A stretch of 30,892 nucleotides of DNA from a virus (lineage: Duplodnaviria > Caudoviricetes). Under the pieces are notes generated by a model that did not search any database, was not told the DNA's origin, and saw nothing but the letters and a program-made list of their open reading frames with translations. Positions 10,356 through 29,467 of the stretch are shown in pieces; the stretch's first letter is position 1; each line of letters starts with the position of its first letter. Location: IMG/VR virus record IMGVR_UViG_3300030101_000937, positions 1 through 30,892 of that record; one strand, given 5' to 3'. A program made the translations under genes and the position numbers.

Positions 10356-10376
10356 TTTAACAAAACACTATTTTTT
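10356..10376 (+). repeat. 21-bp direct repeat, copy 1 (TTTAACAAAACACTATTTTTT)
   Basis: Identical to 11218-11238. Confidence 0.9.
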
Positions 10377-11222
10377 ATGGTCAAAGTAAATACTTTAAGT
10401 GGGGGTAAAACAAGTTCTTATATTGCTGCTAACTACCCTGCTAATTATGATGTATTTGCACTTGTAAGAATAGAACACCAACCTTCACTATTTCTTGATA
10501 AAAAAGTAAGGCAAGAAGTAGAAGATAGAATACAAGCACCATTCATTGCTACAGCAGAAGATGACATGATAATATATACCATGTTAGATTTAGAACAATA
10601 CATAGGTAGAAAAATAACATGGGTAACTGGTAAAACTTTTGATAAGGTTTTAGAAACAGCAGGAACTTTACCTGATCCATTAAGAAGATATTGTACAACA
10701 CAAATGAAACTTGAACCTATATTTAAATGGTGGCAAAAAGTAATAAATAAACCTTGTGAGTTTGCTTTAGGTTTTAGGGCAAATGAAAATAAAAGAGCAG
10801 CAAGAACACTAAATAAAGTAAATAAAAATGGATATTTAGAAATGAAAGCCATAGTAGGCAAAAGAGGTACACTAAATAAGTGGGGTAAGATTGAATGGCA
10901 AAAGCCAACTTTCCCTTTAATACAAGATAACATATATAAACATACAATAGAGAAATACTGGTTAGATAAGCCAGTAAGGTTTGCATACATGAATAACTGT
11001 GTAGGGTGTTTTCACAAAAACCCATTACTAATTAAAAAAATGTGGGGGTTACATGAAGATAAGTTAAATTGGTTTGCAAGTAAAGAAAGAATAAAGCACA
11101 ATAAAGATGTTTGGTATAAAAGTAAAAACCTATCTTTTGATGATATAAAAAAATGGAATTTACAAACAGAATTGTTTGATGATGATTTTAATGAATGTGA
11201 TAGTGGTTACTGTGGTATTTAA
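10377..11222 (+). CDS. PAPS-reductase/PP-loop family protein
   Basis: PP-loop SGGKTS, R.CT..MK..P, GFRA.E..RA, FPL, NCVGC, and C-terminal ECDSGYCG. Confidence 0.75.
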   Translation: MVKVNTLSGGKTSSYIAANYPANYDVFALVRIEHQPSLFLDKKVRQEVEDRIQAPFIATAEDDMIIYTMLDLEQYIGRKITWVTGKTFDKVLETAGTLPDPLRRYCTTQMKLEPIFKWWQKVINKPCEFALGFRANENKRAARTLNKVNKNGYLEMKAIVGKRGTLNKWGKIEWQKPTFPLIQDNIYKHTIEKYWLDKPVRFAYMNNCVGCFHKNPLLIKKMWGLHEDKLNWFASKERIKHNKDVWYKSKNLSFDDIKKWNLQTELFDDDFNECDSGYCGI

Positions 11223-11238
11223 CAAAACACTATTTTTT
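11218..11238 (+). repeat. 21-bp direct repeat, copy 2
   Basis: Identical to 10356-10376; contains the gene's TAA stop and the AACAAA box of the late promoter. Confidence 0.9.
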
Positions 11239-11245
11239 TTATTGT
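11221..11245 (+). promoter_or_regulatory. Putative late promoter AACAAA-N13-TATTGT (terminase operon)
   Basis: AACAAA 11221-11226, TATTGT 11240-11245. Confidence 0.75.
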
Positions 11246-11273
11246 ATATTTGATTAATCAAGTTTTTTCAAGT

Positions 11274-11507
11274 ATGGCGCATGGGGGTAAAAGACAAGGT
11301 TCAGGCAGAAAATCTAAAGCAGAAGAAATAGATTTAATAGAAAAACTATCACCATTAGAACCTGAAGCATTTGCAGCTTTAACTAAAGGAATACAGAAAG
11401 GTGATTTTAAGTTTGTACAATTATTTTATAATTACTGGGCAGGTAAACCAAAAGAAACAAAAGATATAACCATAAATGAAGATGTTCCTTTGTGGTTAGA
11501 AGATTAG
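11274..11507 (+). CDS. terS: Putative terminase small subunit
   Basis: HGGKRQGSGRK N-terminal motif and GKPKE; immediately upstream of terL. ATG 11274 preferred over TTG 11250. Confidence 0.65.
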   Translation: MAHGGKRQGSGRKSKAEEIDLIEKLSPLEPEAFAALTKGIQKGDFKFVQLFYNYWAGKPKETKDITINEDVPLWLED

Positions 11508-12674
11508 ATGTTTAAAAAAACACAAGCATTATATAAATTACTGGAATTAAAGAACAGGGTAAGGATTGTATGTGGGGGTACTTCAGCAGGTAAAACTATT
11601 TGCATATTACTTATACTAATACAAGATGCAATAAAAAATAAAGGTAGGGAAGTATCAGTAGTAGCTTCTACTGTACCTGCACTAAGAAGGGGTGTATTAA
11701 AAGATTTTCTGAAGATTATGAAAACTACAAATAGATACAAAGAAGAAAGTTTTAATAAAACCACACTTAAATACACTTTTAGTAATGGTAGTTATTTAGA
11801 ATTTTTTAGTATAGATCAACCTGATAAGATTAGAGGTAGTAGAAGAACAGATTTATTTATAAACGAGTGCAACACTATACCAAATGGTTTTGAAAGCTAC
11901 CAACAATTAGCTATAAGAACTTCAGGTAAGATATGGTTAGATTACAACCCCACAAGTTTGTTTTGGGTAGACAAAGAATTAAAAGGGCAAGTAGATACAG
12001 ATTTTGTAAGATTAACATACAAAGATAACAACACACTACCTGAAGGTATAATAAAAGAACTAGAAAAGGCAAGAGATAAAGCAAAGACAAGTACTTACTG
12101 GGAAAACTGGACAAGGGTTTATTTGGATGGGCTTACAGGGGCTTTACAAGGTGCATGTATACCTGACTGGCAAGAAATAGATAAACTACCCTTAGAAGCT
12201 AAATTATTAGGTTATGGTATGGACTTTGGATATGTAGACCCCACTACAATAATGGCATTATATAAATGGAATAATGCTTATATATTTGATGAAGTATTAT
12301 ACAAAAGTAATATGGTATTAAGAGATGTGAGTTTATTTCTAACACAAAACAATATAAAAGAAAACATAATAGCAGATCATGCTGAACCAAAAAGTATAGC
12401 TACCCTTTCTATGGATGGACACAAAATATACCCCTGCACAAAAGGTAGGGATAGTGTAACCTATGGTATAAACCTAATAAACCAAAATGAAATATATGTA
12501 ACAAGTAATAGTAAGAACTTAAAAAGAGAATTACAAGGTTATGTTTGGGCAAGAGATAAAGAAGGTAACACAATAGAAAAACCAACTGGGGTGCATCCTG
12601 ATTGTATAGATGCATGTAGGTATATTTTAACAGACCATTTAAGTACACCAAAAGGGGAATATTATATTTATTAG
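11508..12674 (+). CDS. terL: Terminase large subunit (PBSX-like)
   Basis: Walker A GGTSAGKT, LFINE, DYNP, GMDFG..DPT, AD.AEP, D.IDA.RY. Confidence 0.93.
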   Translation: MFKKTQALYKLLELKNRVRIVCGGTSAGKTICILLILIQDAIKNKGREVSVVASTVPALRRGVLKDFLKIMKTTNRYKEESFNKTTLKYTFSNGSYLEFFSIDQPDKIRGSRRTDLFINECNTIPNGFESYQQLAIRTSGKIWLDYNPTSLFWVDKELKGQVDTDFVRLTYKDNNTLPEGIIKELEKARDKAKTSTYWENWTRVYLDGLTGALQGACIPDWQEIDKLPLEAKLLGYGMDFGYVDPTTIMALYKWNNAYIFDEVLYKSNMVLRDVSLFLTQNNIKENIIADHAEPKSIATLSMDGHKIYPCTKGRDSVTYGINLINQNEIYVTSNSKNLKRELQGYVWARDKEGNTIEKPTGVHPDCIDACRYILTDHLSTPKGEYYIY

Positions 12675-12681
12675 TTAATAA

Positions 12682-12712
12682 TTTGTTTATAATTAAAACT
12701 TTTGTATATTTA
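12682..12712 (+). promoter_or_regulatory. Host-type promoter TTTG-N19-TATATTTA
   Basis: TTTG 12682-12685, 19-nt spacer, TAnnTTTA 12705-12712, upstream of ATG 12731. Confidence 0.65.
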
Positions 12713-12730
12713 CATTATTAAACAATTAAA

Positions 12731-12997
12731 ATGAGTTACAAAAAATTTAAAATACCTATTAGAACTGAAACTTTTATAACTGTAGGTTATAATGTTGAGG
12801 AAGAAATCTCAATACTTGGTGAAACTGAAAAAGCTATACATATTGTATATCAAAGTCCTTTAAACCCATACATGCCAAAAAGATCAAAATACAAAGATGT
12901 ATTGTTATGGATACCTAAATCTATTTGGGATAATGGCAAGTATTTTGTAAATGACCATAAAGGTCAAAGGTGTTTTATAAGACCAGTTTGGTTATAA
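12731..12997 (+). CDS. Hypothetical protein
   Basis: 88 aa containing ETEKAI...WIPKS; A-rich start context. Confidence 0.75.
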   Translation: MSYKKFKIPIRTETFITVGYNVEEEISILGETEKAIHIVYQSPLNPYMPKRSKYKDVLLWIPKSIWDNGKYFVNDHKGQRCFIRPVWL

Positions 12998-13014
12998 TCT
13001 TTAAAAAAACAATT

Positions 13015-13212
13015 ATGAATTTAGATAAAAACTTTAGTGAAACAATTATTAGGTTAAACAGAATTATAGATAGGTTAAGAAGATCTATACATGATAGAGA
13101 ACAGAAAATAGTAGCACAAGAAGAAACTATAGCTGCTATGGATAAACAATTAAAAGAATTAGAAACACAGATTATTAATAAAAATTTTGAAACATGGAAG
13201 AATATAGATTAA
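13015..13212 (+). CDS. Hypothetical coiled-coil protein
   Basis: In frame with track ORF 12970; ATG 13015 in the AAAAAAACAATTATG context is preferred. Confidence 0.65.
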   Translation: MNLDKNFSETIIRLNRIIDRLRRSIHDREQKIVAQEETIAAMDKQLKELETQIINKNFETWKNID

Positions 13213-13355
13213 TTAAAATGGTAGTAAATGATAAAGAAAACAGGAAAACATTATACAAGGTATTGGGTTATGCCTTTATATCTTTTGTAAGTTTTTTTAG
13301 TTTCTTGTATGGCACAATGTATTTTATTGTATGGATGGTAAACATGAAACAATGA
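13194..13355 (+). CDS. Small single-TM protein (53 aa, not in track)
   Basis: MEEYRLIKMVVNDKENRKTLYKVLGYAFISFVSFFSFLYGTMYFIVWMVNMKQ*. Confidence 0.55.
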   Translation: MEEYRLIKMVVNDKENRKTLYKVLGYAFISFVSFFSFLYGTMYFIVWMVNMKQ

Positions 13356-13549
13356 TTGCTTGTTGGGGTGCTAATTGCTTTGTATATTACAAACCAGTAG
13401 AACAGGGAAAGAATAGAATGGTAAAACTAGAAATGAATTTACAAGGTAATGTAGTAACAGGCAAAGAACTATATAAACAAAACAGTAAAGAAATAATAAA
13501 TAAAATTGAAGAACTATATGAATATATTTATAAAAATTATGTAACTTGA
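13331..13549 (+). CDS. Hypothetical protein
   Basis: 72-aa ORF before a terminator; start uncertain (13331 or 13352). Confidence 0.65.
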   Translation: MDGKHETMIACWGANCFVYYKPVEQGKNRMVKLEMNLQGNVVTGKELYKQNSKEIINKIEELYEYIYKNYVT

Positions 13550-13583
13550 AGTAATTTCATTTGATTTTAATTTGGTTAATAAT

Positions 13584-13611
13584 AAGGCAGGTAGAAATAC
13601 CTGCTTTTTTT
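13584..13611 (+). terminator. Rho-independent terminator
   Basis: GCAGGTA-GAAA-TACCTGC followed by T7. Confidence 0.9.
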
Positions 13612-13617
13612 GTGTTA

Positions 13618-13642
13618 TACACTTTGGCTATAATTTTATTGT
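13618..13642 (+). promoter_or_regulatory. Putative late promoter variant TACACT-N13-TATTGT-N6-ATG
   Basis: TATTGT 13637-13642, ATG 13649; degenerate upstream box at the same spacing. Confidence 0.65.
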
Positions 13643-13648
13643 ATAAGT

Positions 13649-14308
13649 ATGAAAGTAGAAATAAATGTACCTAGCAGTATATCAGAAATCACACTAGAAC
13701 AATATCAAAAGTTTGTAAAGGTTAATACTGAAGAAAACAAAGATTCCAGTTTCTTAATGCACAAAACAGTAGAAATATTTTGTAATATGGATTTAAAAGA
13801 TATTGCAAAGATAAAACTAACAAGTGTGAAAGAAATACTAGATCATTTAAACAAAGTATTTGAAGTAAAGAGTGATTTAATACCTAGATTTACATTAGGG
13901 GGTATAGAATATGGTTTTATTACACAACTTGATGAAATGACACTAGGGGAATATATAGATTTAGATGAAAACATGAGTGATTGGGAAACCATGCACAAAG
14001 CTATGGCAGTTCTATATAGACCAGTAATACATAAAAAGGGTGATAGGTACAAGATAAAAGAATATGATGGTTTAGATAATAGTGGTGAAATGAAACAAAT
14101 GCCACTAGAAGTAGTAATGGGATCAATGGTTTTTTTTTGGAATTTAAACGAAGAATTGCTACAAACTACCCTGAACTATTTGAAGAAGGAAATGAACAAC
14201 AACAATATGGAAGTACAGAAAATTTTACAAGAAAATGGGGGTGGTATTCAAGCATCTATGGACTTTCTAAAGGGGATGTTTCCAAGTATGACACTATCAC
14301 TAAATTAA
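13649..14308 (+). CDS. Putative tail assembly chaperone (G-like, zero-frame product)
   Basis: First gene of the tail operon; internal T9 slippery run at 14130-14138. Confidence 0.65.
   Translation: MKVEINVPSSISEITLEQYQKFVKVNTEENKDSSFLMHKTVEIFCNMDLKDIAKIKLTSVKEILDHLNKVFEVKSDLIPRFTLGGIEYGFITQLDEMTLGEYIDLDENMSDWETMHKAMAVLYRPVIHKKGDRYKIKEYDGLDNSGEMKQMPLEVVMGSMVFFWNLNEELLQTTLNYLKKEMNNNNMEVQKILQENGGGIQASMDFLKGMFPSMTLSLN
14131..14137 (+). other. -1 ribosomal frameshift site T TTT TTT
   Basis: In-frame X XXY YYZ heptamer leading into the -1 frame open to 14394. Confidence 0.75.
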
Positions 14309-14394
14309 ATGTACACCAATGCTTAATGTTTTTGGCTTTTGAAAAAGAAAAAACACAAATTGAAATGCAGAGAATAAAAAGTAAACAAAGATGA
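14137..14394 (+). CDS. -1 frame extension (GT-like chaperone C-terminus)
   Basis: No ATG at its 5' end; begins at the slippery run; its TGA overlaps the next ATG (ATGA 14391-14394). Confidence 0.7.
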   Translation: MEFKRRIATNYPELFEEGNEQQQYGSTENFTRKWGWYSSIYGLSKGDVSKYDTITKLNVHQCLMFLAFEKEKTQIEMQRIKSKQR

Positions 14395-14846
14395 CAAAGT
14401 TTTACGATGTACTAGAAAAAATAAAAACCAAGCTGATAGCAGAACCATTTTGTAATACAGTAAGCTATGGTAGTTTAGATGATGTAGATTTAAACAAACA
14501 AAATATATTTCCATTATCACACATAATAGTAAACAACTGTAATGTATCTACAAACACCTTAACATTTAACATTAGTGTACTTGCAATGGATATTGTAGAT
14601 GAAAGTAAAAAAGAAACTACAGATATATTTGTAGGTAACGACAATGAACAAGATGTTTTAAACACACAACTATCAATACTTAATAGATTAATGGCATTAT
14701 TACAAAGGGGTGATCTATATACAGAAGGTTACCAAGTAGAAGGACAGGTAGGTTGTGAGCCATTTGTGGACAGGTTTGAAAATAAACTTGCAGGATGGGC
14801 AGCTACATTTGATTTAATTGTACAAAACGATATGACAATATGCTAA
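14391..14846 (+). CDS. Putative tail terminator/completion protein
   Basis: Size, acidic composition, FPL.HI motif and position in the tail operon. Confidence 0.55.
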   Translation: MTKFYDVLEKIKTKLIAEPFCNTVSYGSLDDVDLNKQNIFPLSHIIVNNCNVSTNTLTFNISVLAMDIVDESKKETTDIFVGNDNEQDVLNTQLSILNRLMALLQRGDLYTEGYQVEGQVGCEPFVDRFENKLAGWAATFDLIVQNDMTIC

Positions 14847-15349
14847 CAAAGGGTGGTAAACTAGAAACTGTACTAAACAGATTTAGAAAGCAGGTTATTG
14901 ATGGTAGTAGAAAACAATTAAAACTACAAAAGAAAAATGCTTTTGGTAAACTATCTAAAAGTTTGGATTCTAATTTAGAAATTTTCAAAAATAGTTTTAG
15001 CTTATCTTTTTCTATGGAAGAATATGGTATATACCAAGACAAAGGGGTAAGTGGTACAAAGAAAAAATACAACACACCATTTTCTTATACAACCAAAAGA
15101 CCACCTGCAAGTAAATTAGATAAGTGGACTGTAAAAAGAACAATAGCACCTAGAGATGAAAAAGGTAGATTTATAACTAGAAAAGGTTTAAATTTTATAA
15201 TTGCAAGGAGTATATACCAAAAGGGTATAAAGCCAAGTTTGTTTTTTACAAAACCTTTTGAAAAGGCATTTAAGCAATTACCTGAAGATGTAGTAAATGC
15301 TTATGCACTAGAAGTAGAAGATTTTTTAAAATTTAGTTTAAAAGAATGA
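14840..15349 (+). CDS. Putative neck/tail-completion protein (HK97 gp10-like)
   Basis: G.LS.SL, YG.Y.DKG..G and IKP..FF..PFE motifs; basic. Confidence 0.6.
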   Translation: MLTKGGKLETVLNRFRKQVIDGSRKQLKLQKKNAFGKLSKSLDSNLEIFKNSFSLSFSMEEYGIYQDKGVSGTKKKYNTPFSYTTKRPPASKLDKWTVKRTIAPRDEKGRFITRKGLNFIIARSIYQKGIKPSLFFTKPFEKAFKQLPEDVVNAYALEVEDFLKFSLKE

Positions 15350-16920
15350 GTACAAAAATAAATTCAAGAAGCCCATTTTACATAACAGCTACTGAACCTA
15401 CAGTATCAGAAGGTGCATTTAGTTGTACTACAGCAGGACTTGCAAACTTTAGTGTAGAAAGTGATGGTACTATTATAGAACCTACAATACTAAAAGGTAT
15501 CATAATAGATAGAGATGTTACAAGTTTTGCAGCTTTAAGTGCAAGTGATTCAAGTGTTTCAAGAACTGTAAACTACACAATACAAATACCTGATGGTTTC
15601 AGTAATACTACAGATGGTACTTTAATATGCCCACAAACATTTACGCAGTTACCCCCAACTACTTGTGTTCAATCAAGTAATAATAACATGGCTGTATTTA
15701 CAGGTAGTATTTCAGATATAACTAATGTTACTACAGGTAGTACAGTATCACTTGGTAGTTTCTTTTCCAATGGCACAAGTGCTACAATAACAAGTTATGA
15801 AATAGTAAGGTATGGTGATTCAGCAATAACAGCTACTTTAAGTGGTACAGTTCCAAACCAAACTTTAACATTTTCTACCACTTCTACAGGTGTAAGTGCA
15901 GATTTTATTGTAAGAGCAAGAAATAGTGTAGATGCTTGTATAACTTCAAGTAATAAGTTTACAGTATCAGGTGCATCAGCAGGTGCAGCAGATTGTAATA
16001 CTATTTCTTTATCAGGTGGTTCTATTGCATCTACAGGTTTGATAAGTGTACCTTCTTATAATGTAGGTAATCTAACAAGAATAAATATAAAAAGTATTGC
16101 AGGGGTTTCTAACACAACAGAAGTAACAACAAGCAGCCAACAAACAAGTAATTTAGCTAACAGTACAGGTTCAAGTAGAACTATAGTATTAACATTTAGA
16201 TTTTCAATACCACAGGGTTATAGTAATGCAGGTGGTAATTTAGATTGTGATGCAACCTTTACACAACCTGCAACTTCTACACCTGCACTTGTATGTACTG
16301 ATAATTTTTTAAGTTATTCAGGTTTTAGAATTACTACCACAGGTGATATAATAGTAGGTGAAGTAGATGTAAATGGTACAAGTGCTTCTGTTTTACAAGT
16401 ATCAACTGATCAAAGTGATGGTTTAGGTGGGTTTAAAAGTTCTTTTGATACTGTAACTTCAGCTACAGCAAGAACCATAAAGGTAACATTTTTAGTACCA
16501 AGTGGTTTTAGTAATACTGGTGATGCACTTACTTGTGATGTTTCAGGATTAACACAACCCCCAAGTAGTAACCCTTGTGATATTACAAACCCAGAATTTT
16601 TTATAAGTGATAGTTCTTTTAGTACTAAAACTGGTTTTTGTGATAACAACAGAAAATATACAGTAAATAATTCTGTAATTATAAATAGTTCAGGAACTTT
16701 AGTTAGTAATATAGTTGGTGGTAATATTGTTTGTGATAGGGGTACACCTATGAATGGTGGCAACGAATATTTTGCAATATCAGTAAACCCATCAGCAAGT
16801 GGTGCAGGTAATATTGGTTCAAGTTTTAAGGTAATAAGAATTGATGAATTTGGTGTAGTTACAGAAAGCCCTGTAGAAGTTAATTGTGGTAGTGATACAG
16901 GATTTGATAATATTTTATAG
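15346..16920 (+). CDS. Virion structural protein with three internal Cys-paired beta-rich repeats
   Basis: Ser/Thr-rich; repeated [IV]P.G[FY]SN....L.C...[FL]TQ.P. Confidence 0.7.
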   Translation: MSTKINSRSPFYITATEPTVSEGAFSCTTAGLANFSVESDGTIIEPTILKGIIIDRDVTSFAALSASDSSVSRTVNYTIQIPDGFSNTTDGTLICPQTFTQLPPTTCVQSSNNNMAVFTGSISDITNVTTGSTVSLGSFFSNGTSATITSYEIVRYGDSAITATLSGTVPNQTLTFSTTSTGVSADFIVRARNSVDACITSSNKFTVSGASAGAADCNTISLSGGSIASTGLISVPSYNVGNLTRINIKSIAGVSNTTEVTTSSQQTSNLANSTGSSRTIVLTFRFSIPQGYSNAGGNLDCDATFTQPATSTPALVCTDNFLSYSGFRITTTGDIIVGEVDVNGTSASVLQVSTDQSDGLGGFKSSFDTVTSATARTIKVTFLVPSGFSNTGDALTCDVSGLTQPPSSNPCDITNPEFFISDSSFSTKTGFCDNNRKYTVNNSVIINSSGTLVSNIVGGNIVCDRGTPMNGGNEYFAISVNPSASGAGNIGSSFKVIRIDEFGVVTESPVEVNCGSDTGFDNIL

Positions 16921-16922
16921 AT

Positions 16923-20280: not shown

Positions 20281-21884
20281 AAATAGAAGCTATTGCAAAA
20301 GATGCAGTAAAGAAAATAGAAGAATTAACTGGGCAAGTAGAAAACCTAGAAGCACAGCTAAAAGATACCAACAAAACAAGTAAACAAGTAGCAAAAGGTG
20401 TAGGTGCTATAGGTACTACACTAAAAGCAGCAGGTATTGGTTTAATTGTAGCAGCATTTGCAAAGCTAACAGAAGTATTTAATGAAAATCAAAAGGTAAC
20501 AAATATATTCAACACAGCTTTTGAAGCACTATCTTTAGCATTTAATGACTTCTTTAATTTTTTAGATAATAATGTAGGTACAGTTATAGGTTATTTTAAA
20601 GGTATATTTGAAAACCCCCAACAAGCAATAAGTGATTTTGGTACTTCTATTAAAAATAACCTTATAGAAAGGTTTAATAGTTTTTTAGATACACTTGGTT
20701 TTTTAGCTAGTGCAGTAAAAAAAGTATTTAGTGGTGATTTTGCAGGTGCATTAGATGATGTTAAAAATGCAGGTAAAGAAAGTTTAGATGTACTTACAGG
20801 TGTAGACAACACATTTGATAAATCAGTAGAAACAGTAAAAAGTGCAACTTCAGCTATTGTAGATTACACCAAAGAAACAATAAAACAAGCAGCAAGTACA
20901 GTAGATTTAAATAGAAAAGCAGATGTCAGTATAGCTAAAAATAGAATTATATTAGAACAAAAAGATAGGGAAGCTGAAAAGTTAAGGCAAATTAGAGATG
21001 ATGAAAGTGTAAATATTGAAGAAAGAATAAAAGCCAATAATAAACTAGCAGAAGTTCTAGATGAACAAGAAAGGTTGATGTTAGCAAATGCAGATGCAGT
21101 AATAGCAGCAGCACAAGCACAATTTGATAAAAATGCAAATGATGAAAACCAAATAGCACTACTTGATGCAAAGGCAGAAAGAGAAGGCATACTAGCACAG
21201 GTAGAAGGTTTTAGATCAGAACAATTAATAAATATAAATTCTTTAAATAGGGAAAAATTAGATTTGTTAGATGAAGAAAAAGAAAAAGAAATAGAAGCTG
21301 CTGAACTTAAAAAGGAATTAAAAGAACAAGAGAGAGAGGGTATCAAAAGTAATTTAGATACTATAATAGCAGCAGCAGGACAAGAAACAGCAATAGGAAA
21401 AGCTCTATTTGTGGCAAAACAAGCCATGCTTATACAAGAACAAATACAAGATGCTAAAGCCATACTACAACAAATAACAGGTAGGGCAGCAGCAGCAGGT
21501 GTAGATGCAGCAGCAGGTTCAATGCGAACAGCAAGTGCAGTACCATTTCCTGCAAACATACCTTTAATTATAGGATTTGCAGCACAAGCAGCAGGAATAT
21601 TTGCATCTATAAGGTCAGCAGTAAGAGCAACTAAAAGTAGTGCTTCTAAATTTGGTGTATCTGGTGGTGTAATGACTTCAACCCCTAGAATACAAGCAAC
21701 CACAACACCTACTGCATCTGTTCCACCTGCATTTAATGTTGTAGGAGCATCAGATACTAATCAACTTGCAGAAGCAATAAGTGGTAAAGAACAAAAACCA
21801 GTAAAAGCATTTGTAGTTAGTAGTGATGTAAGCAATGCACAAAGTTTAGATAGGAATATAATTGAAACTGCAAGTATTGGGTAA
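20259..21884 (+). CDS. Tape measure protein
   Basis: Long Ala-rich alpha-helical/coiled-coil protein with hydrophobic segments. Confidence 0.75.
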   Translation: MSVKKTIEIEAIAKDAVKKIEELTGQVENLEAQLKDTNKTSKQVAKGVGAIGTTLKAAGIGLIVAAFAKLTEVFNENQKVTNIFNTAFEALSLAFNDFFNFLDNNVGTVIGYFKGIFENPQQAISDFGTSIKNNLIERFNSFLDTLGFLASAVKKVFSGDFAGALDDVKNAGKESLDVLTGVDNTFDKSVETVKSATSAIVDYTKETIKQAASTVDLNRKADVSIAKNRIILEQKDREAEKLRQIRDDESVNIEERIKANNKLAEVLDEQERLMLANADAVIAAAQAQFDKNANDENQIALLDAKAEREGILAQVEGFRSEQLININSLNREKLDLLDEEKEKEIEAAELKKELKEQEREGIKSNLDTIIAAAGQETAIGKALFVAKQAMLIQEQIQDAKAILQQITGRAAAAGVDAAAGSMRTASAVPFPANIPLIIGFAAQAAGIFASIRSAVRATKSSASKFGVSGGVMTSTPRIQATTTPTASVPPAFNVVGASDTNQLAEAISGKEQKPVKAFVVSSDVSNAQSLDRNIIETASIG

Positions 21885-21907
21885 CAAAACACATAAATAA
21901 TTATTGT
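21883..21907 (+). promoter_or_regulatory. Putative late promoter AACAAA-N13-TATTGT-N6-ATG
   Basis: AACAAA 21883-21888, TATTGT 21902-21907, ATG 21914. Confidence 0.8.
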
Positions 21908-21913
21908 TATAGT

Positions 21914-23248
21914 ATGGATATAATAGAACTTTTTATAGATGAAGAAGATGAAGTAAGTGGTATTGATGCAGTAAGTTTAGTAGAAAACCCTGCAATAGAA
22001 GAAGATTTTATAGCACTTAAATCATTAGAATATAAATTTGCAGAAGTAGACAAAGAAAAACGTATAATTATGGGTGCAGCACTTGTACCTAACAAACCTA
22101 TTTTAAGAACTAAAAATGATGAACCTTATTATATATATTTTAGTAGGGAAACAGTAAGAAAAGCAAGTGAATTATTTTTTATAAGGGGTAATGCTAGTAA
22201 ATCTACACTAGAACATGCAGAGCCACTACAGGGTTTAACAGCAGTTGAAACTTGGATAGTAGAAGATTTGAAGAAAGATAAAAGCAGGTTATATGATATG
22301 GAAGTACCTCTAGGTACATGGATGTTATCAATGAAGGTTTTGAATGATGATATTTGGAATAACTATGTAAAAACTGGTAAGGTAAAAGGATTTAGTATAG
22401 AAGGGTACTTTGCAGACAAGTTAGAAAGACCTAATGAACCAAACAAGTTAGAACAAATACAAGAAGAAGAAGCAGATTACCTACTAAACCACCTAAAGGA
22501 CATACTAGAAGATAAACAAGTAGAACTAGAAAGCTATAGTGACTACCCTGATGCAGTAAAAAACAATGCACAAAGGGGTATTGATCTAAATGAAAAAGTA
22601 AATAATAAGTGTGCAACCCAAGTAGGAAAAGTTAGGGCTTCACAATTAGCACAAGGCAAACCAATAACAGCAGAAACTATAAAAAGAATGTATAGCTTTC
22701 TATCTAGGGCAGGTGAATACTATGATGAAGGCAACACAGAAGCATGTGGTACTATTAGTTATTTACTTTGGGGTGGTAAAGCAGGTTTAAGATGGAGTGA
22801 AAGCAAACTAAAAGAACTTGAAATGTTAGCTGAAACAGGCCCAAGAGGTGGTATAAGAAAAAGCCCTAAAGCACCAAAGTCAGGTACACCAAACCCCAAC
22901 CCAAAAGGCAAGGGTACAGCAAAGGGTGATGCTTCTACAAGTAGGGGTGCAAAGGTATCTAAACAAGATGAAGCCACACTAAAGAAAAAAGCAGAAGAAT
23001 TTAATGAAAGGTACAAGAAAAAACTAGGGTATGGTGCTAATGTAGGTACACTTAAAGCTGTATTTCAAAGAGGTTTAGGTGCATTTAATGTTTCACATAG
23101 CCCAAGAGTTAAAAGTGCATCACAATGGTCATTTGCTAGGGTAAATGCTTTTTTATATTTACTAAAAAATGGTAGGCCACAAAACCCAAAGTATACTGGT
23201 GACTATGATTTACTACCTGCTAAACACCCAAAGAGTAGTAAAAAATGA
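21914..23248 (+). CDS. XkdF-like prohead serine protease with long C-terminal extension
   Basis: SLV..PAIE, ST.EH, GTW...., VK.GKVKGFSIEG catalytic-Ser motif; about 270 extra C-terminal residues. Confidence 0.8.
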   Translation: MDIIELFIDEEDEVSGIDAVSLVENPAIEEDFIALKSLEYKFAEVDKEKRIIMGAALVPNKPILRTKNDEPYYIYFSRETVRKASELFFIRGNASKSTLEHAEPLQGLTAVETWIVEDLKKDKSRLYDMEVPLGTWMLSMKVLNDDIWNNYVKTGKVKGFSIEGYFADKLERPNEPNKLEQIQEEEADYLLNHLKDILEDKQVELESYSDYPDAVKNNAQRGIDLNEKVNNKCATQVGKVRASQLAQGKPITAETIKRMYSFLSRAGEYYDEGNTEACGTISYLLWGGKAGLRWSESKLKELEMLAETGPRGGIRKSPKAPKSGTPNPNPKGKGTAKGDASTSRGAKVSKQDEATLKKKAEEFNERYKKKLGYGANVGTLKAVFQRGLGAFNVSHSPRVKSASQWSFARVNAFLYLLKNGRPQNPKYTGDYDLLPAKHPKSSKK

Positions 23249-23394
23249 AAACATTATACATAAAAGAGTACAAACCTTGTAACACAGATGGTAAAAGGGC
23301 TTGTTTATGTCCTGATGGTAAAACTTATTCAAGAAAATGCTGTGATGGCAGTTTTCAGGCACAAGGTATAGGTTCAGTAACAGGCACAAGTTAA
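23245..23394 (+). CDS. Small Cys-rich protein (49 aa, not in track)
   Basis: MKTLYIKEYKPCNTDGKRACLCPDGKTYSRKCCDGSFQAQGIGSVTGTS*; ATGA overlap with the protease stop. Confidence 0.7.
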   Translation: MKTLYIKEYKPCNTDGKRACLCPDGKTYSRKCCDGSFQAQGIGSVTGTS

Positions 23395-23400
23395 AAACAT

Positions 23401-23425
23401 AACAAATAATAAAAAAACATATTGT
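23401..23425 (+). promoter_or_regulatory. Putative late promoter AACAAA-N13-TATTGT-N6-ATG
   Basis: AACAAA 23401-23406, TATTGT 23420-23425, ATG 23432. Confidence 0.8.
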
Positions 23426-23431
23426 AATAAC

Positions 23432-23788
23432 ATGGATACTATAGAAAAAAGAATACAGGCATACCTAAGTAAATTACCCAAAGAACAAGTTAAATTATCT
23501 AAAATAAATGACATACAGGAAAGAATAAATGATGGTTTTGGTTTAGAAGATTTTATTAGAGATGAAATAGAAAAAGCACAAAAATCTTTGACTAAAGCAA
23601 GAGATATTTTACAATTTGATTTTAGAGATGCTTATTTAGATGCAGATGAATTATTGGAAGAATTAGAGAATGAAGTTAAAGAACTAGGTATAGCAGAGCC
23701 ACCAAAAGTAAAAGTTTTAAAATCAGAGTTAAACAAACTAAAAAGTTTAGAGAATAAACTAGAAAATGAAATAAAACAAGTAGGGTAA
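23432..23788 (+). CDS. Helical protein with shared leader; putative capsid-internal protein 1
   Basis: N-terminus MDTIEKRIQAYLSKLPKEQVKLS is shared with the next ORF. Confidence 0.7.
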   Translation: MDTIEKRIQAYLSKLPKEQVKLSKINDIQERINDGFGLEDFIRDEIEKAQKSLTKARDILQFDFRDAYLDADELLEELENEVKELGIAEPPKVKVLKSELNKLKSLENKLENEIKQVG

Positions 23789-23789
23789 G

Positions 23790-24167
23790 ATGAACACTAT
23801 AGAAAAGAGAATACAAGCATATTTAAGTAAGATGCCAAAACAAAAAGTAGAGTTAGCAAGAAAAGCACCTGCAATATTAAAAGATGCACAAAAAATAGAT
23901 GACAGTATAGACAGGGAAAAAGCTAAAGTAGAAAAAGCATTTTTACAATACAGAAAAGTTTGGCAGTCATGGACAAATTTTTTAGAAGATGCTGACCAAA
24001 AACTTACTAAACTAAGATACACAGATTTAGATGAACTGTATAAAAAATTAAATGAAGTTGGTGTAAACCCTAATTCTTTACCTGAAGTAAAACAAGCAGA
24101 ACAAGTTGCTAATAGAGCATTAAATGCTGTAGATGGTTTGAAAAGTGTTTACAAAAAACCACAGTAA
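23790..24167 (+). CDS. Helical protein with shared leader; putative capsid-internal protein 2
   Basis: N-terminus MNTIEKRIQAYLSKMPKQKVELA. Confidence 0.7.
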   Translation: MNTIEKRIQAYLSKMPKQKVELARKAPAILKDAQKIDDSIDREKAKVEKAFLQYRKVWQSWTNFLEDADQKLTKLRYTDLDELYKKLNEVGVNPNSLPEVKQAEQVANRALNAVDGLKSVYKKPQ

Positions 24168-24173
24168 AAATAC

Positions 24174-24198
24174 AACAAACTAAACCAATAATTATTGT
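24174..24198 (+). promoter_or_regulatory. Putative late promoter AACAAA-N13-TATTGT-N6-ATG
   Basis: AACAAA 24174-24179, TATTGT 24193-24198, ATG 24205. Confidence 0.8.
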
Positions 24199-24204
24199 AC
24201 TACT

Positions 24205-24834
24205 ATGAAGGCAGATAATATGTTAGGAAAAATCAAAGAATTGTTAAGTATTGATACTGAAACAAAAGAAGTAAAACTAGAACAAGCTACACTTGAAAAT
24301 GGTACTGTAATAGAAAGTGAAAACTTTGAAGCAGGTAGTGAAGTTTTTATAGTTACAGAAGATGAAAAAGTACCTTTACCAGTTGGTGAATATACTTTAG
24401 AAGATGGTGAAAAATTAATAGTAAAAGAAGAAGGCATTATAGCTTCTATTGGTGCAGAAAAAGAAGAAGAACCTAAAGAAGAAGCTAGTGAAGAAAATTT
24501 AAATACTGATAATATGGAAAATAAAGAAGTTGTACAAGAAGTACAAGAAAACCTTGAAGAAGAGAAGAAAGAAGAAATGCAGTATGCAACTAAAGAAGAA
24601 CTTGCTTCACTTCAAGATGAAATAAAAGAGATCAAAGGAATGATTGAAAAAATGGGTAAAAAAGAAGAAGAAATGAGTGCTGAAGATAAACCCATTGAAG
24701 AAAAAGAAGAACTTTCAGCAGTTGAAAAGGTAAAACATAACCCTGAAGAAGAAGTAAAAACTGAACCTGTATTTATGAGCAGAAGAGGTGAAACAACTTT
24801 TGATAGAGTTATGCGTAGAATTAATAATATATAA
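24205..24834 (+). CDS. Capsid scaffolding protein
   Basis: Very Glu-rich with a basic C-terminal helix; immediately upstream of the capsid gene. Confidence 0.75.
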   Translation: MKADNMLGKIKELLSIDTETKEVKLEQATLENGTVIESENFEAGSEVFIVTEDEKVPLPVGEYTLEDGEKLIVKEEGIIASIGAEKEEEPKEEASEENLNTDNMENKEVVQEVQENLEEEKKEEMQYATKEELASLQDEIKEIKGMIEKMGKKEEEMSAEDKPIEEKEELSAVEKVKHNPEEEVKTEPVFMSRRGETTFDRVMRRINNI

Positions 24835-24845
24835 TAATTTAGAAA

Positions 24846-25766
24846 ATGGCAACAAGTATTTCAACCAGTTATGCAGGCGAATTTGCAGGCAAGTACATCT
24901 CTGCAGCACTACTTTCTGGAAAAACTTTAGGTGAAGAAACAATAACAATTTTACCTAATATAGTGCATAAACAAGTTATGCAAAAAGTAAGCAGTAATGA
25001 CATAGTAAAAAATGGTGTATGTGATTATTCAGATAGTTCAACTTTAACATTATCTGAAAGAACACTAACACTTGAAGATTTTATGGTAAATGTTACTGCT
25101 TGTAAAAAAGATTTCTTAAACACATGGCAAGCTGCAGAAGTTGGTTTAGGTGGTTTAGGTAGAGAGTTACCAAAATCCTTTGCAGATTTTATTATAGGAC
25201 ATTTTTCAGCCAAAGTGGCTCAAAGAATGGAAACTAATATATGGGCAGGAGTAAATGGTACAGATGGGCAGTTTGATGGTTTTAAAGCACTTCTTGCTGC
25301 TGATAGTGATGTAATTGATGTAGTTGCTACAGATGTAACAGCTTCTAATGTTATTACAGAATTAGGTAAAGTTGCAGATGCAATACCAAGTGCTGTATAT
25401 GGACAAGAAGATACTACTATATGGGTGGCAAGTAATGTTTATAGAGCTTATATCAGAGCATTAGGTGGATTTGGTGCGAATGGATTAGGTGCAGCAGGTT
25501 TTGAAGATAGAGGTAACAACCAAGCTATTACACCTGCATTTTTTGATGGTATAAGAATTTCACATGCACAAGGTTTAGGAACTAACGAAATGGTTGCAGG
25601 ACAAAAAAGTAACTTTTTCTTTGGTACTTCTTTACTAAATGACTTGAATGAAGTAAAAGTAATTGACATGAGTGATATAGATGGTTCACAAAATGTTAGG
25701 TTTGTAATGAGATTTCAAGCAGGTGTTCAATTTGGTATTGGTGGTGACTGTGTACAGTATACCTAG
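24846..25766 (+). CDS. Major capsid protein
   Basis: 306 aa after the scaffold gene and followed by a strong terminator; YAGEFAGKYI, E..IW.G, VR..MRF.AGVQ. Confidence 0.8.
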   Translation: MATSISTSYAGEFAGKYISAALLSGKTLGEETITILPNIVHKQVMQKVSSNDIVKNGVCDYSDSSTLTLSERTLTLEDFMVNVTACKKDFLNTWQAAEVGLGGLGRELPKSFADFIIGHFSAKVAQRMETNIWAGVNGTDGQFDGFKALLAADSDVIDVVATDVTASNVITELGKVADAIPSAVYGQEDTTIWVASNVYRAYIRALGGFGANGLGAAGFEDRGNNQAITPAFFDGIRISHAQGLGTNEMVAGQKSNFFFGTSLLNDLNEVKVIDMSDIDGSQNVRFVMRFQAGVQFGIGGDCVQYT

Positions 25767-25786
25767 AATACTAATTAATTAACTAT

Positions 25787-25826
25787 AAAAGGGTAGGTAG
25801 GGTTTATATCTATCTACCTTTTTTTT
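25787..25826 (+). terminator. Rho-independent terminator after the capsid gene
   Basis: GGTAGGTAG...CTATCTACC stem followed by T8. Confidence 0.8.
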
Positions 25827-25839
25827 AAAATATAATATT

Positions 25840-26388
25840 ATGGCATGTAATTTAACAAGGGGTAGAAAAGAACCATGTAAAGATGTAGTTGGTGGTATTA
25901 AGGGTGTGTACTTTTTTGATTTTGGATCAATAACAGCAACTTTTGATAGCACAGACACAGATGTAATAGATAGTTTAGGAGATGTTACTTGCTTTAACTA
26001 TGAGGTAAAGGGTAACAGTAGTTTTGAACAAGCTATTACAAGTTCTAGAGAAAATGGTACAACTTTTTTCGAGCAAACACTAAATCTTACACTAAAAAAA
26101 CTAACAGTACAAGACCATAAAGAATTAAAATTATTATCTTATGGTAGACCACATGTGGTTGTAGAAGATTATAATGGTAATGCCTTTATGATGGGGTTAG
26201 AACATGGTGCAGATGTTTCAGGTGGTACAATAGTTACTGGTGCAGCTATGGGTGATTTAAGTGGTTATACACTTACACTAACAGCACAAGAACTAAAACC
26301 TGCTAACTTTTTAGAAGGTGCAACTTCAGCAAATCCATTTGCAGGACAAACTGGTACAGTAACAGTAACAGAAGGCACAAACAGTTAG
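25840..26388 (+). CDS. Major tail (tube) protein
   Basis: 182 aa; C..GR...C...VGGI, NGT.FFEQTL.L, G....D.SGYTLT..AQE. Confidence 0.7.
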   Translation: MACNLTRGRKEPCKDVVGGIKGVYFFDFGSITATFDSTDTDVIDSLGDVTCFNYEVKGNSSFEQAITSSRENGTTFFEQTLNLTLKKLTVQDHKELKLLSYGRPHVVVEDYNGNAFMMGLEHGADVSGGTIVTGAAMGDLSGYTLTLTAQELKPANFLEGATSANPFAGQTGTVTVTEGTNS

Positions 26389-26409
26389 AATTTGATTTTT
26401 TTGTTTTGA

Positions 26410-26438
26410 GAGGGGTAGCAGAAATGTTACCCTTTTTT
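26410..26438 (+). terminator. Rho-independent terminator
   Basis: GGGTAGCA-GAAA-TGTTACCC followed by T6. Confidence 0.85.
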
Positions 26439-26442
26439 ATTT

Positions 26443-26467
26443 AACAAAATAGAACTACTTTTATTGT
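26443..26467 (+). promoter_or_regulatory. Putative late promoter AACAAA-N13-TATTGT-N6-ATG
   Basis: AACAAA 26443-26448, TATTGT 26462-26467, ATG 26474. Confidence 0.8.
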
Positions 26468-26473
26468 ATATAT

Positions 26474-26815
26474 ATGATAGTTTTACAAAGTTCAGGTAGT
26501 AGCCAAACATTTAGTTTTATTCCTAGATCATACACTTCAGGAAATACTTATACAATTAAGATAAACAACGAAAGCACAAACAAAGAAGTGTTTAGCCAAA
26601 CATCTACAAGTTTTACAGAAGTAGATTACTATTACCAGTACAGCAATACTTTTACTTTGGTAGAAGATACTTTTTATACTTTAGAAATTACAGAAGGTAG
26701 TACACTAATTTTTAGAGATAAAATATTTTGCACTAATCAAACAGTAGCAGATTTCACAGTAAACGAAAATCAGTACACTACCAACACAACAACTAACGAA
26801 TTTGTATTTATATAA
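26474..26815 (+). CDS. Small beta-rich structural protein (head closure-like, putative)
   Basis: 113 aa, beta-strand pattern, upstream of the portal gene. Confidence 0.5.
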   Translation: MIVLQSSGSSQTFSFIPRSYTSGNTYTIKINNESTNKEVFSQTSTSFTEVDYYYQYSNTFTLVEDTFYTLEITEGSTLIFRDKIFCTNQTVADFTVNENQYTTNTTTNEFVFI

Positions 26816-26817
26816 AC

Positions 26818-28845
26818 ATGGATAACATACACATAGTAAACTTATCAACCTACAACAAACCCAAAGTAGTAGAAGATAAAAGAAAAGAATGGGTAGCTTA
26901 TGGTGATGATAACAATTACTACCAATATCTTATAGACCTTTTTACAAGTTCTACAACAAACAATGCAGTAATAAATGGTATAAGTAATATGATTTATGGC
27001 AAAGGTTTAGATGCACTTGATAGTAATACAAAAACAGATGAATATGCAGCGCTCAAAAGTATATTTAACAATGACTGTTTAAAAAAAATTGCACTTGATC
27101 TTAAACTACTTGGTGAAGCATGTTTTCAAGTTTTATACCAAAATGGTAAAGTAATAAAAGCAGAACATTTTCCAAGACAAACTTTAAGACCTGAAAAAAT
27201 GAATGAAGAAGGTGATATAGAAGCATACTATTATGCACCTGATTGGGAAAAAGTAAAACAAAATACCAAACTAAAAAGAATTGCAAACTTTGGTTTTGGT
27301 AATGGTAAAGAACCTGAGATTAAAGTAGTAAAAAAATATGTATCAGGGTACGATTATATATGCCCAGTAGATTATCAAGGTGCATTGGCTTACTGTGAAT
27401 TAGAAAGTGAAATTTCAGATTTCCTTATAAACGATGTACAATGTAATTTTAGTGGTACTAAAGTAGTAAACTTTAACAATGGTGTGCCTGATAGGGAAAA
27501 ACAGCTACAAATTAAAAGTGAGGTTATGGCCAAACTTACAGGTAGTAGGGGTGAAAAAGTTATAGTAGCATTCAACAACAATGCAGAAAGTAAAACTACT
27601 GTAGATGATATACCTTTAGATGATGCACCTGCACACTATGAATATTTAGCCAATGAATGTATTAGAAAAATAATAATGGGGCATAGGGTAACAAGCCCAT
27701 TACTTTTAGGTGTAAGGGATGGTAATAGTGGTTTAGGTAACAATGCAGATGAAATAAAAACTGCAAGTTTATTATTTAACAACATAACTATAAAACCTTA
27801 CCAAGACCAAATTATAGAATGTATAAACCATATTTTAGCAGTTAATGAAATAAGTTTAAAACTTTACTTTAGAACCTTGCAACCTTTAGAATTTATTGAT
27901 ACAGATAACGCAGTAACACAAGAAGCTAAAGAAGAAGAAACTGGTGTGAAGTTAGTTAGTCAGGTAGTAGATAAAGATTTTGCTATTATAGATGACAGGT
28001 TAGCATATAGCACACCTGAAAAAGCTGAAGAAATGGCTAGAAATATAGGGTGTGAAGGGATACACACACATGAATATATAGATGTGGATGGTAACACAAG
28101 GACTTGGTATATGCCTTGTGAAAAACATATAAAAGATGATCTAAAAAAATGTCCAAAAGGATTTGTTAAAGATAAAAATGGTAAATGTGTAAAGAAGAAA
28201 AGCATGTATTCAGAAGAACAACTTGCAAAAGATGAAAGACCTTTTTTAAGTGATGATGATGGTGATGAATTATTTACACTAATAGACCAGTTAGGCGAAA
28301 TAGAAGATTTAGAAAACTATGAACTATTAGACACAGATACTACAGAAGATGAACCTGATGATTTTGATGTAGAAAATTATTTAAATGGTTTAAAGTTATC
28401 ATCAAAACAAGATTCTAGCCAAGACAATGATTTATTTAAGGTGAGGTACAAGTATGTAAAAGGCACAAAAAAACAACCAAAAGGTGAAACTAGACCATTT
28501 TGTAGAAGAATGTTAAGTACTGGTAAACTATATAGAAAAGAAGATATTGCACAAATGAGTTTTAGGGGTGTAAATAAACAGCATGGACACAAAGGACAAA
28601 ATTATTCTTTGTTTAAGTGGCAAGGTGGGGTAAATTGTCATCACATTTGGGAAAGAAGAATTTACAAAAAGAAATTAAAAAAGGATGGCACACCCTATAA
28701 AGGTAATGCACTTGCAAACACAAAGTTTGTAAATGTAAATCAAGCTGTAAAACAAGGTTTTAAACTACCTAAAAACCCCAAAGAAGTAGCACAAGCAAAT
28801 ATAACTAGAGGTGACAAAGGACACCACCCAAACTATAAAGGATAA
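26818..28845 (+). CDS. Portal protein with C-terminal extension including a MuF-like Cys/His domain
   Basis: Portal-like first ~375 aa (YG.DN.Y..YL, L.L.GE, I..GH.V..P.LLG, I.P.Q..I); C-terminal RPFC...GG.NCHH.W. Confidence 0.8.
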   Translation: MDNIHIVNLSTYNKPKVVEDKRKEWVAYGDDNNYYQYLIDLFTSSTTNNAVINGISNMIYGKGLDALDSNTKTDEYAALKSIFNNDCLKKIALDLKLLGEACFQVLYQNGKVIKAEHFPRQTLRPEKMNEEGDIEAYYYAPDWEKVKQNTKLKRIANFGFGNGKEPEIKVVKKYVSGYDYICPVDYQGALAYCELESEISDFLINDVQCNFSGTKVVNFNNGVPDREKQLQIKSEVMAKLTGSRGEKVIVAFNNNAESKTTVDDIPLDDAPAHYEYLANECIRKIIMGHRVTSPLLLGVRDGNSGLGNNADEIKTASLLFNNITIKPYQDQIIECINHILAVNEISLKLYFRTLQPLEFIDTDNAVTQEAKEEETGVKLVSQVVDKDFAIIDDRLAYSTPEKAEEMARNIGCEGIHTHEYIDVDGNTRTWYMPCEKHIKDDLKKCPKGFVKDKNGKCVKKKSMYSEEQLAKDERPFLSDDDGDELFTLIDQLGEIEDLENYELLDTDTTEDEPDDFDVENYLNGLKLSSKQDSSQDNDLFKVRYKYVKGTKKQPKGETRPFCRRMLSTGKLYRKEDIAQMSFRGVNKQHGHKGQNYSLFKWQGGVNCHHIWERRIYKKKLKKDGTPYKGNALANTKFVNVNQAVKQGFKLPKNPKEVAQANITRGDKGHHPNYKG

Positions 28846-29348
28846 TGGCAGAAGCACTATTAATAACAAGAAAAGATGTAGTAAAGTTTACTTCAGTTTC
28901 AGGTAATCTTGATACAGATACTTTTATAATGAGAGTAAAGATTGCACAAGATAAACATATAGAAAACTATTTAGGTACAGATTTACTTGAAAGCATACAA
29001 GCAAAAATTGTAGCAGGTACACTTACTGGTGATTACCAAACATTAGTAAATGATTATGTAAAACCCTGCTTAATACATTGGACAATGGTAGAAATGTTAC
29101 CATTTAGTGCTTATACTATAGCAAATAAAGGTGTATTTAAACACAATAGTGAAAATGCAGAAAATGCTTCTAAAGAAGAAGTAGATTACCTTTTAGAGAA
29201 AGAAAGAAATACAGCACAATACTATACAAACAGGTTAATCGATTATTTAAGTTTTAATGCACCAAGTAAGTTTCCTGAATACTACACTTCTACAAATGAA
29301 GATGTACACCCTGATAAAGATGCAAGTTTTGAAGGTTGGGTATTATGA
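28845..29348 (+). CDS. Putative head-tail adaptor/connector
   Basis: 167-aa helical protein; AQD.HI..YLGTDL; directly after the portal gene. Confidence 0.6.
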   Translation: MAEALLITRKDVVKFTSVSGNLDTDTFIMRVKIAQDKHIENYLGTDLLESIQAKIVAGTLTGDYQTLVNDYVKPCLIHWTMVEMLPFSAYTIANKGVFKHNSENAENASKEEVDYLLEKERNTAQYYTNRLIDYLSFNAPSKFPEYYTSTNEDVHPDKDASFEGWVL

Positions 29349-29467
29349 AGTATAAAGCCAAAGAAAATAACATTAAGAAACTTACAGAATACTTAAACAA
29401 AAAAGTATATAACAAAAACAAACAAAATTTATTGTATAAATATGGCAAACACAATAAACTGGGGTAG
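29345..29467 (+). CDS. Possible small basic peptide (40 aa)
   Basis: MKYKAKENNIKKLTEYLNKKVYNKNKQNLLYKYGKHNKLG*; ATGA overlap, but it runs through a promoter. Confidence 0.4.
   Translation: MKYKAKENNIKKLTEYLNKKVYNKNKQNLLYKYGKHNKLG
29411..29435 (+). promoter_or_regulatory. Putative late promoter AACAAA-N13-TATTGT-N6-ATG
   Basis: AACAAA 29411-29416, TATTGT 29430-29435, ATG 29442. Confidence 0.8.

Follow-up and report, generated by a model that had tools for sequence, protein, structure and literature searches.

The question raised by the virus record IMGVR_UViG_3300030101_000937 is how its late genes are switched on, and in particular what a two-box signal, AACAAA-N13-TATTGT, does in front of its packaging and head genes and whether the small open reading frame (ORF) 6062 encodes the protein that reads it. 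The whole stretch analyzed, here called the window, has 30,892 bases, an 86-nt terminal repeat, a GC content of 30.5% and called genes that all lie on the + strand. Comparison of the window with its relatives indicates that the conserved two-box signal is probably a late promoter read by a phage sigma factor of the extracytoplasmic function (ECF) type, in which case the genes at the heads of the late units would be expressed from leaderless messages.

The exact pattern occurs at 11221, 21883, 23401, 24174, 26443 and 29411, always on the + strand, and these six copies compare with a mean of 0.08 in shuffled sequences (largest number 1; none of 100 shuffles reached six); a seventh copy, a TACACT variant, is present at 13618. 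An ATG follows exactly 6 nt past the box at the TATTGT position in six of the seven copies (13649, 21914, 23432, 24205, 26474, and 29442), while at the copy at 11221 a G (11252) stands in place of the ATG and the start codon of the terminase small subunit lies at 11274. There are 17 TATTGT hexamers on the + strand of the window, six of which have an ATG at the 6-nt place, and all six are motif sites. The positions of the copies, the fixed spacing and the placement of two copies directly after terminators (hairpins 13584-13607 and 26408-26438) had all been put forward in an initial annotation of the sequence and were verified here. Its description of the copies as heads of packaging or morphogenesis units stands for the terminase, protease and portal units, through family matches, and for the capsid unit by position, the head genes at 13649, 23432, 26474 and 29442 having no named function. 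The features concerned are the following.

6062..6610, + strand: ECF-type sigma-like gene encoding 182 amino acids (aa) in two helical domains, predicted to read the promoters
11221..11252, + strand: putative promoter copy 1, boxes 11221-11226 and 11240-11245, predicted +1 at G 11252; heads the terminase genes, with a predicted 22-nt leader
11274-11507, + strand: likely terminase small subunit, assigned by position, start set from family orthologs
11508-12674, + strand: terminase large subunit (PHROG 2 and Pfam Terminase_3)
13584..13607, + strand: intrinsic terminator-like hairpin found by terminator scan, directly before copy 2
13618..13651, + strand: putative promoter copy 2 (TACACT variant) of conserved genes without a known function, the first starting at ATG 13649, whose A is the predicted +1
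21883..21916, + strand: putative promoter copy 3 of the head maturation protease gene (ATG 21914, its A being the predicted +1)
23401..23434, + strand: putative promoter copy 4 of a pair of similar small ORFs without a known function, the first starting at ATG 23432, whose A is the predicted +1
24174..24207, + strand: putative promoter copy 5 of the scaffold-like gene (ATG 24205, its A being the predicted +1); the likely major capsid gene, 24846-25766, comes after it
26408..26438, + strand: terminator-like hairpin with T-run, -16.8 kcal by folding, absent from the terminator-scan list, directly before copy 6
26443..26476, + strand: putative promoter copy 6 of a small gene (ATG 26474, its A being the predicted +1) that precedes the portal gene 26818-28845
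29411..29444, + strand: putative promoter copy 7 of a small gene (ATG 29442, its A being the predicted +1), which is followed by a gene resembling baseplate or tail-fibre connectors

A host sigmaA promoter (TAnnTTTG, -12 to -5) or an SM5 promoter was ruled out as the identity of the motif, as none of the seven sites fits the SM5 register (TAnnTTGY) and none holds TTTG; the motif is thus distinct from the Bacteroidota promoter, as had been stated. The special short spacer of 13 nt that had been proposed for it does not hold. Counted from AAC the spacing is 16 nt in the window and 15-17 nt in relatives, which is ordinary ECF geometry; the -35 boxes of ECF promoters often have AAC at their end, with an A/T tract after it. 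Such promoters have been scored with a spacing of 16-18 bp (PMC7776599).

Transcription is predicted to start 7 nt past the TATTGT box, a position taken by the A of the ATG in six of the seven copies. The strongest evidence for this start comes from the terminase copy, a natural control because it has no ATG at the fixed place. Among the 51 distinct contexts of terminase promoters (out of 129 rows, 78 of which, not dereplicated, lack a listed two-box signal before the small terminase, a point to the detriment of the comparison) 46 have a pyrimidine-purine step at positions 6/7 past the box, and 50 have a purine at position 7 (A in 24, G in 26). The same step occurs at the two neighbouring registers in 2 and 1 contexts, at positions 3/4 in 18, and at positions 10/11 in 31, the last belonging to a palindrome in the leader; it is retained at 6/7 in 23 of the 28 contexts with the leader palindrome elsewhere. 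A pyrimidine-purine step marks the start sites of ECF promoters (PMC7776599). At unit heads in general a pyrimidine precedes the start codon in 178 of 193 cases versus 229 of 524 internal late genes, and an A at -12, which favours translation in Flavobacterium (PMC6847099), is present at 16% of unit heads versus 68% of internal late genes. The step register at the terminase copies, together with the fixed 6-nt spacing, supports by inference the existence of a late promoter class starting at the A of the ATG. In three metatranscriptome runs, from at most two samples of one study, the window stretch was present as contigs with shares of 0.20, 0.12, and 0.06. None of the 24 RNA contigs viewed, out of 76 pieces, spans a motif, and assembled contigs cannot show starts; one of them begins at 29450, 8 nt inside ORF 29442, while a divergent contig extends by 116 loose letters ahead of 21978 and so would reach about 50 nt upstream of ATG 21914, which may reflect read-through, DNA or a different layout. 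These contigs decide neither for nor against leaderless starts.

The distribution of the element was addressed in a set of 80 genomes and large contigs (78 fetched, the cultured phage P12024S and the window), most of which were chosen by sigma homology and the rest by motif or capsid. Removal of near-duplicates left 75, including the non-family genomes G034 (no orthologs) and G035 (one ortholog). Searching 9 of the 64 parts of IMG/VR identified 166 loci with the exact pattern and ATG; of 140 distinct matches, 98 stand at the head of orthologs of the protease, scaffold-like, pre-portal or 29442 genes, while ORFs of less than 40 aa account for 30 and other ORFs for 12. We estimate that about 860 stored IMG/VR stretches carry the exact TATTGT version, in a phage family that comprises at least 7998 capsid clusters. 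A scan of the 75 genomes for [AT]ACA-N15/16-TATTGT, blind to the ATG, gave 143 sense against 26 antisense matches; in 84 of the sense matches the first ATG lies 6 nt away, and in another 7 it lies 7 nt away. When unit heads were anchored on orthologs, 165 of 196 had a listed box 14-17 nt past ACA, the list having been derived from the same data and leaving 31 heads without a box, and the ATG came 6 nt after the box in 145 of these 165, 7-8 nt after it in 9, 11-19 nt in 10 and 0 nt in 1.

Across the family the upstream box wACAAA is constant. At the ortholog of ORF 13649, the gene that the TACACT variant precedes in the window, relatives keep TACA. The -10 box varies by clade, with more than ten forms that include TATTGT, TATTAT, CGTTAT, CGTTTA, AGTTAT, TGTTAT, and CGTATA; P12024S carries a CGTTA version of the element before 7 late genes. 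The distance from ACA to the box is 15 nt (AAC-N16) in 63 of 64 TATTGT copies and 14-16 nt in the CGT types. The element is repeated and specific to the heads of late gene units, as in a late promoter class of a phage sigma factor.

ORF 6062 itself has no Pfam or PHROG match. In an alignment of 58 members of its family a weak Sigma70_r2 match was found in 19 (best E 0.0012), ORF 6062 not being among them, and a YlxM-type helix-turn-helix match in 28. The AlphaFold2 model has a predicted local distance difference test score (pLDDT) of 78, with a low-confidence linker at residues 88-95, and shows the build of ECF factors, which are small proteins with regions 2 and 4 only, joined by a short linker. 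The top Foldseek matches of this model in the PDB are ECF sigmas (best E 4.7e-4, over 160-180 columns), which assigns the N-terminal domain to region 2 by fold, and the C-terminus aligns with sigmaE region 4 (2h27) at a target template modeling (TM) score of 0.76, a root mean square deviation of 2.0 and E 0.83. In BFVD the model matches phage ECF sigmas, among them gp33 of P12024S, and a broad profile of the family retrieves this same protein, annotated as a sigma-region-2 protein, at E 5.5e-17; a tblastn search with the sigma found no match to P12024S/L. For this ORF, which had been called sigma-like, an ECF-type fold is thus supported at the level of the model. A sigma homolog was found in all six family genomes at least 90% complete that had been picked by motif or capsid and fetched (G017, G021, G026, G036, G039, and G040); the complete, motif-bearing G036 had been considered as a counter-example without a sigma until a divergent homolog (E 3.6e-5) was detected in it. 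No promoter copy precedes the sigma gene, an ACA box being present in 2 of 38 sigma upstream regions. A cognate promoter before the own gene is common in bacterial ECF factors, and is not strictly defining.

Directly after the sigma gene lies ORF 6610-7008, a cysteine-bearing ORF of no known family, which follows the sigma directly in 59 of the 69 genomes that have both and lies within 400 nt in 9 more. In the ESM Atlas it matches only hypothetical viral clusters; its N-terminal motif is also found in a Microcystis phage. Its product is a candidate cofactor.

Co-variation of motif and sigma in related genomes, which the initial annotation had proposed as a test, was analyzed on 126 distinct sigmas with a linked unit head, 108 of them assignable to a box type. 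At the level of clades the two agree. Every one of the 44 sigmas assigned to TATTGT carries Arg58-Gly59, and three sigmas with Arg58Glu, which form a nested clade, go with TATTAT; box-type changes on the sigma tree versus the structural trees number 14 against 17 for capsid, 14 against 14 for portal, 15 against 20 for terminase and 14 against 16 for protease. Most of this signal is shared ancestry, because five sigmas with Arg58 go with CGTTTA and the sigma-4 residue Trp148 is equally high in mutual information. At the level of residues no significant independent co-changes were found: Arg58 versus G(-8) gives only two independent pairs on supported branches (one the same way, one with no difference), and none of the four pairs for Asn57 versus G(-11) goes the same way, so that a residue-base code made of these two contacts was dropped. 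ORF 6062 is therefore the best candidate reader by its kind, its presence and the concordance of clades, and not by a demonstrated code.

The order of events that would follow from a phage-sigma promoter can be sketched. Host-sigma promoters would drive the replication block, which holds the sigma gene, and host RNA polymerase with the ORF 6062 sigma would read the late promoters, the C-terminal domain of the sigma recognizing wACAAA (-31 to -26) and its N-terminal domain the box at -12 to -7. The first gene of each unit would be translated from a leaderless message, internal genes (capsid, portal, and large terminase) would use ordinary A-rich Bacteroidota start regions, and the terminase unit would obey the same start register but carry a leader of about 22 nt.

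Besides the residue-level results, several other observations weigh against this reading. A pyrimidine at -1 is also frequent before the internal portal gene (42 of 50) and the ortholog of ORF 25840 (49 of 64); orthologous promoter copies are not independent of one another; the differences between the trees are small and come from fast trees. The fold matches of ORF 6062 are weak singly (TM 0.3-0.4, with a predicted TM score, pTM, of 0.41 for the model), and a sigma-profile search of PDB sequences found no sigma. In at least nine genomes (G046-G049, G055, G057, G059, G061, and G062) the box lies 13-15 nt before the ATG, giving predicted leaders of 7-9 nt. A terminator argument in favour of the promoter comes from the pre-portal gene: 55 of 60 genomes have a terminator T-run 41-57 nt upstream of its ATG, and the remaining space fits just this promoter. 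A hairpin at 25795-25825, between the capsid gene and ORF 25840, has no promoter after it and is kept in 47 of 63 genomes, 18-33 nt before the ATG; it is likely an attenuator that lowers the downstream protein relative to capsid. Read-through thus occurs in the family, and the terminator argument for the pre-portal promoter is not watertight.

Three other explanations have to be set beside a phage-sigma promoter. That the same promoter and start are served by a host ECF sigma, or by host polymerase with some other phage activator, with ORF 6062 otherwise employed or reserved for middle genes, is unlikely, given that the more than ten -10 forms track the phage sigma clades under a fixed upstream box and that every near-complete family genome examined, the six not picked by sigma among them, carries a sigma homolog; nor did a second strong promoter class needing the sigma turn up, although no de novo search was made. 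The failure of the independent-pairs test and the presence of ORF 6610 as a second conserved candidate do speak for such a reader, as does a CGT-box promoter class of Flavobacterium psychrophilum that resembles the CGTTAT versions and has been ascribed to host ECF sigmas (PMC9723704). The reader may also be the phage sigma while the start lies 1-3 nt before the ATG or is scattered, so that the messages are short-leadered and not strictly leaderless. Bacterial ECF promoters have two likely start positions (PMC7776599), the coliphage phiEco32 starts 6-8 bp past its element (PMC8948821), and both the ATG placed at 7 or 8 nt in 9 of 165 unit heads and the 7-9-nt leaders of some lineages point the same way; the pyrimidine-purine step is sharp at 6/7 where no ATG constrains it, however, and 145 of 165 spacings are exactly 6, which makes this version quite improbable.

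The remaining explanation, that the motif acts on RNA as a translation enhancer, operator or processing site, or that it forms an ACA...TGT dyad for a dimeric DNA-binding protein, draws on the complementarity of ACA and TGT in the window version and on the tie of the element to start codons. As a dyad site or RNA hairpin it was rejected on the ground that TGT is absent from 101 of the 165 family copies. The element also precedes the terminase with no ATG at the fixed place, is strand-specific, stands just after terminators and displaces the translation-favouring A(-12) (PMC6847099), and we regard an action of this kind as very improbable. A late promoter read by the phage sigma is the reading retained here.

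How far the leaderless layout extends is a separate matter. The view that late translation would be uncoupled from host-type leaders is not supported: of the 25 ORFs that lie from 11274 to 30465, only 6 stand at the head of a unit in this way. Capsid, portal and large terminase are internal genes of their units and fall outside the layout, the internal late genes keep A-rich upstream regions, and the small terminase has its predicted 22-nt leader; in several TATTGT genomes the scaffold-like gene has a predicted leader of 13 nt. In the short-leader genomes (loci L514-L521, L532-L533, L536-L537, L540-L541, L544, and L545) a run of about 5-7 A lies over the predicted start at several late units, and possibly these A-run starts yield leaders made by slippage or A-rich leaders of the host type. 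The short-leader lineages may share a single origin, which was not rejected in favour of two independent ones (support 60). The leaderless layout itself may be simple economy, with the promoter fused to the head of the gene in a compact genome. A far-reaching extension of the phage-sigma reading would have a very large flavobacterial phage family running its late programme on leaderless unit heads, within a phylum that makes little use of them, and forming a natural library of the sigma-promoter code: one fixed upstream box with more than ten -10 boxes that switch with single sigma changes (Arg58Glu, TATTGT to TATTAT), and one branch in which all promoters have moved about 8 nt further upstream and start in an A-run, where slippage could add untemplated A-rich leaders mimicking the host translation signal. 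Taken as a whole, this extension is rather unlikely.

The terminase promoter has some features of its own. The predicted terminase leader (11250-11273, and in relatives) opens with a 12-nt palindrome and continues to a T-run and CAA right before the ATG. Its letters differ between genomes but the palindrome stays symmetrical, and the element is found even where the small terminase has no listed promoter; no stable RNA fold was predicted for it, and our guess is that it is a candidate packaging-start or terminase-binding site. A 21-nt direct repeat (10356-10376 and 11218-11238, the latter being the upstream part of the terminase promoter) flanks ORF 10377-11222, which resembles a 3'-phosphoadenosine 5'-phosphosulfate (PAPS) reductase. 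Only one copy of the repeat is present in the close relatives G002, L168, L174 and L176, of which G002 lacks the PAPS-reductase-like gene, and in L168 and L176 a different reading frame begins after the terminase leader element. The terminase promoter looks from these comparisons like an insertion hotspot. Elsewhere, the tandem pair of similar small ORFs at 23432-24167 has near-identical N-termini, no family match and its own late promoter, and similar genes, also with a promoter, were found in G002, G004, G006, and G016. ORF 13649 matches only hypothetical viral clusters in the ESM Atlas.

By family matches the replication block of the window encodes a NinG-like nuclease, a single-stranded DNA-binding protein, a helicase and exonuclease VIII, and the window also encodes terminase, head protease, portal, tail-fibre-like and lysis genes. 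The Nonlabens phages P12024S and P12024L were the only ones of 50,697 annotated phage records to match its likely capsid (31-32%) and portal (35%), and by sequence the window phage is a distant relative of these Inhavirus phages. A host-type TTTG...TAnnTTTG promoter at 3733 (3716-3740) precedes the NinG-like gene and likely opens the replication block. The host is likely a marine flavobacterium, because of the P12024 homology and this host-type promoter. The sole match on a genome contig is L377 (JAOMMB010000017.1), which is 13.5 kb long and assigned to a Thioglobus bin; it carries a sigma homolog and a terminase promoter of the TATTAT type and is probably a misbinned piece of phage.

Each element of the proposed strategy has a counterpart elsewhere. 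Salmonella phage 7-11 has in gp47 (SaPh711_gp47) a small phage sigma that works with host core polymerase on eight two-box late promoters with a 16-nt spacer (PMC8948821), as would be the case here, but its consensus is GTAAtg-16-aCTA, its host is enteric, the accessible text mentions no leaderless messages and its mechanism was shown by experiment, whereas that of the window is deduced from sequence. In coliphage phiEco32 the two-domain sigma gp36, the structure of which is among the weak fold matches to ORF 6062 (9m7y, E 0.09), serves middle and late promoters with starts 6-8 bp past the element, as proposed here; its consensus, unlike that of the window, is tAATGTAtA, it uses a helper, gp79, and the accessible text of its accounts describes no fusion to the start codon (PMC12276001, PMC8948821). 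The Thermus phages Lalka27a and YS40 have a distinct late -10 box with starts six bases downstream and mostly leaderless transcripts, but according to the accessible text their late reader is an unidentified phage factor (bioRxiv 10.64898/2026.04.20.719267). Bacterial ECF promoters share the two boxes, the 16-18-nt spacing and the pyrimidine-purine start (PMC7776599); unlike them, the window promoters are phage-borne, drive virion genes and are absent before the sigma gene. The SM6 CGT-box class of F. psychrophilum resembles the CGT -10 boxes of distant phage clades, while the window clade has TATTGT (PMC9723704). Closest are P12024S/L (genus Inhavirus, hosts Nonlabens/Persicivirga), which have homologous capsid and portal, the sigma gp33, the same gene order in the head block and seven promoter copies, but differ in a CGTTA(A/C) box, primase-type replication genes and a length of 35.7 kb. 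A literature search, most subscription papers being outside its reach, found no description of the motif or of P12024 promoters. Leaderless mRNAs make up 5.5% in F. psychrophilum (PMC9723704), and about 3.7% of mRNAs in Bacteroides thetaiotaomicron have leaders of less than 10 nt (PMC7366714).

The strategy as such is known from phages, and the general understanding of late-gene switching is left unchanged by these results; what differs here is the proposed combination of phage-sigma late promoters and leaderless unit heads in a likely Bacteroidota host, and the spread of -10 variants. For a family of marine and freshwater phages that is abundant but almost entirely uncultured, the results offer a concrete late-transcription switch that can be put to the test in a cultured relative, P12024S. 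If the reading is true, the sigma and its promoter would be usable as an orthogonal expression part in Bacteroidota, the natural set of -10 variants would serve for learning ECF specificity, and the family would show leaderless translation at work in a phylum where ribosomes depend on A-rich leaders.

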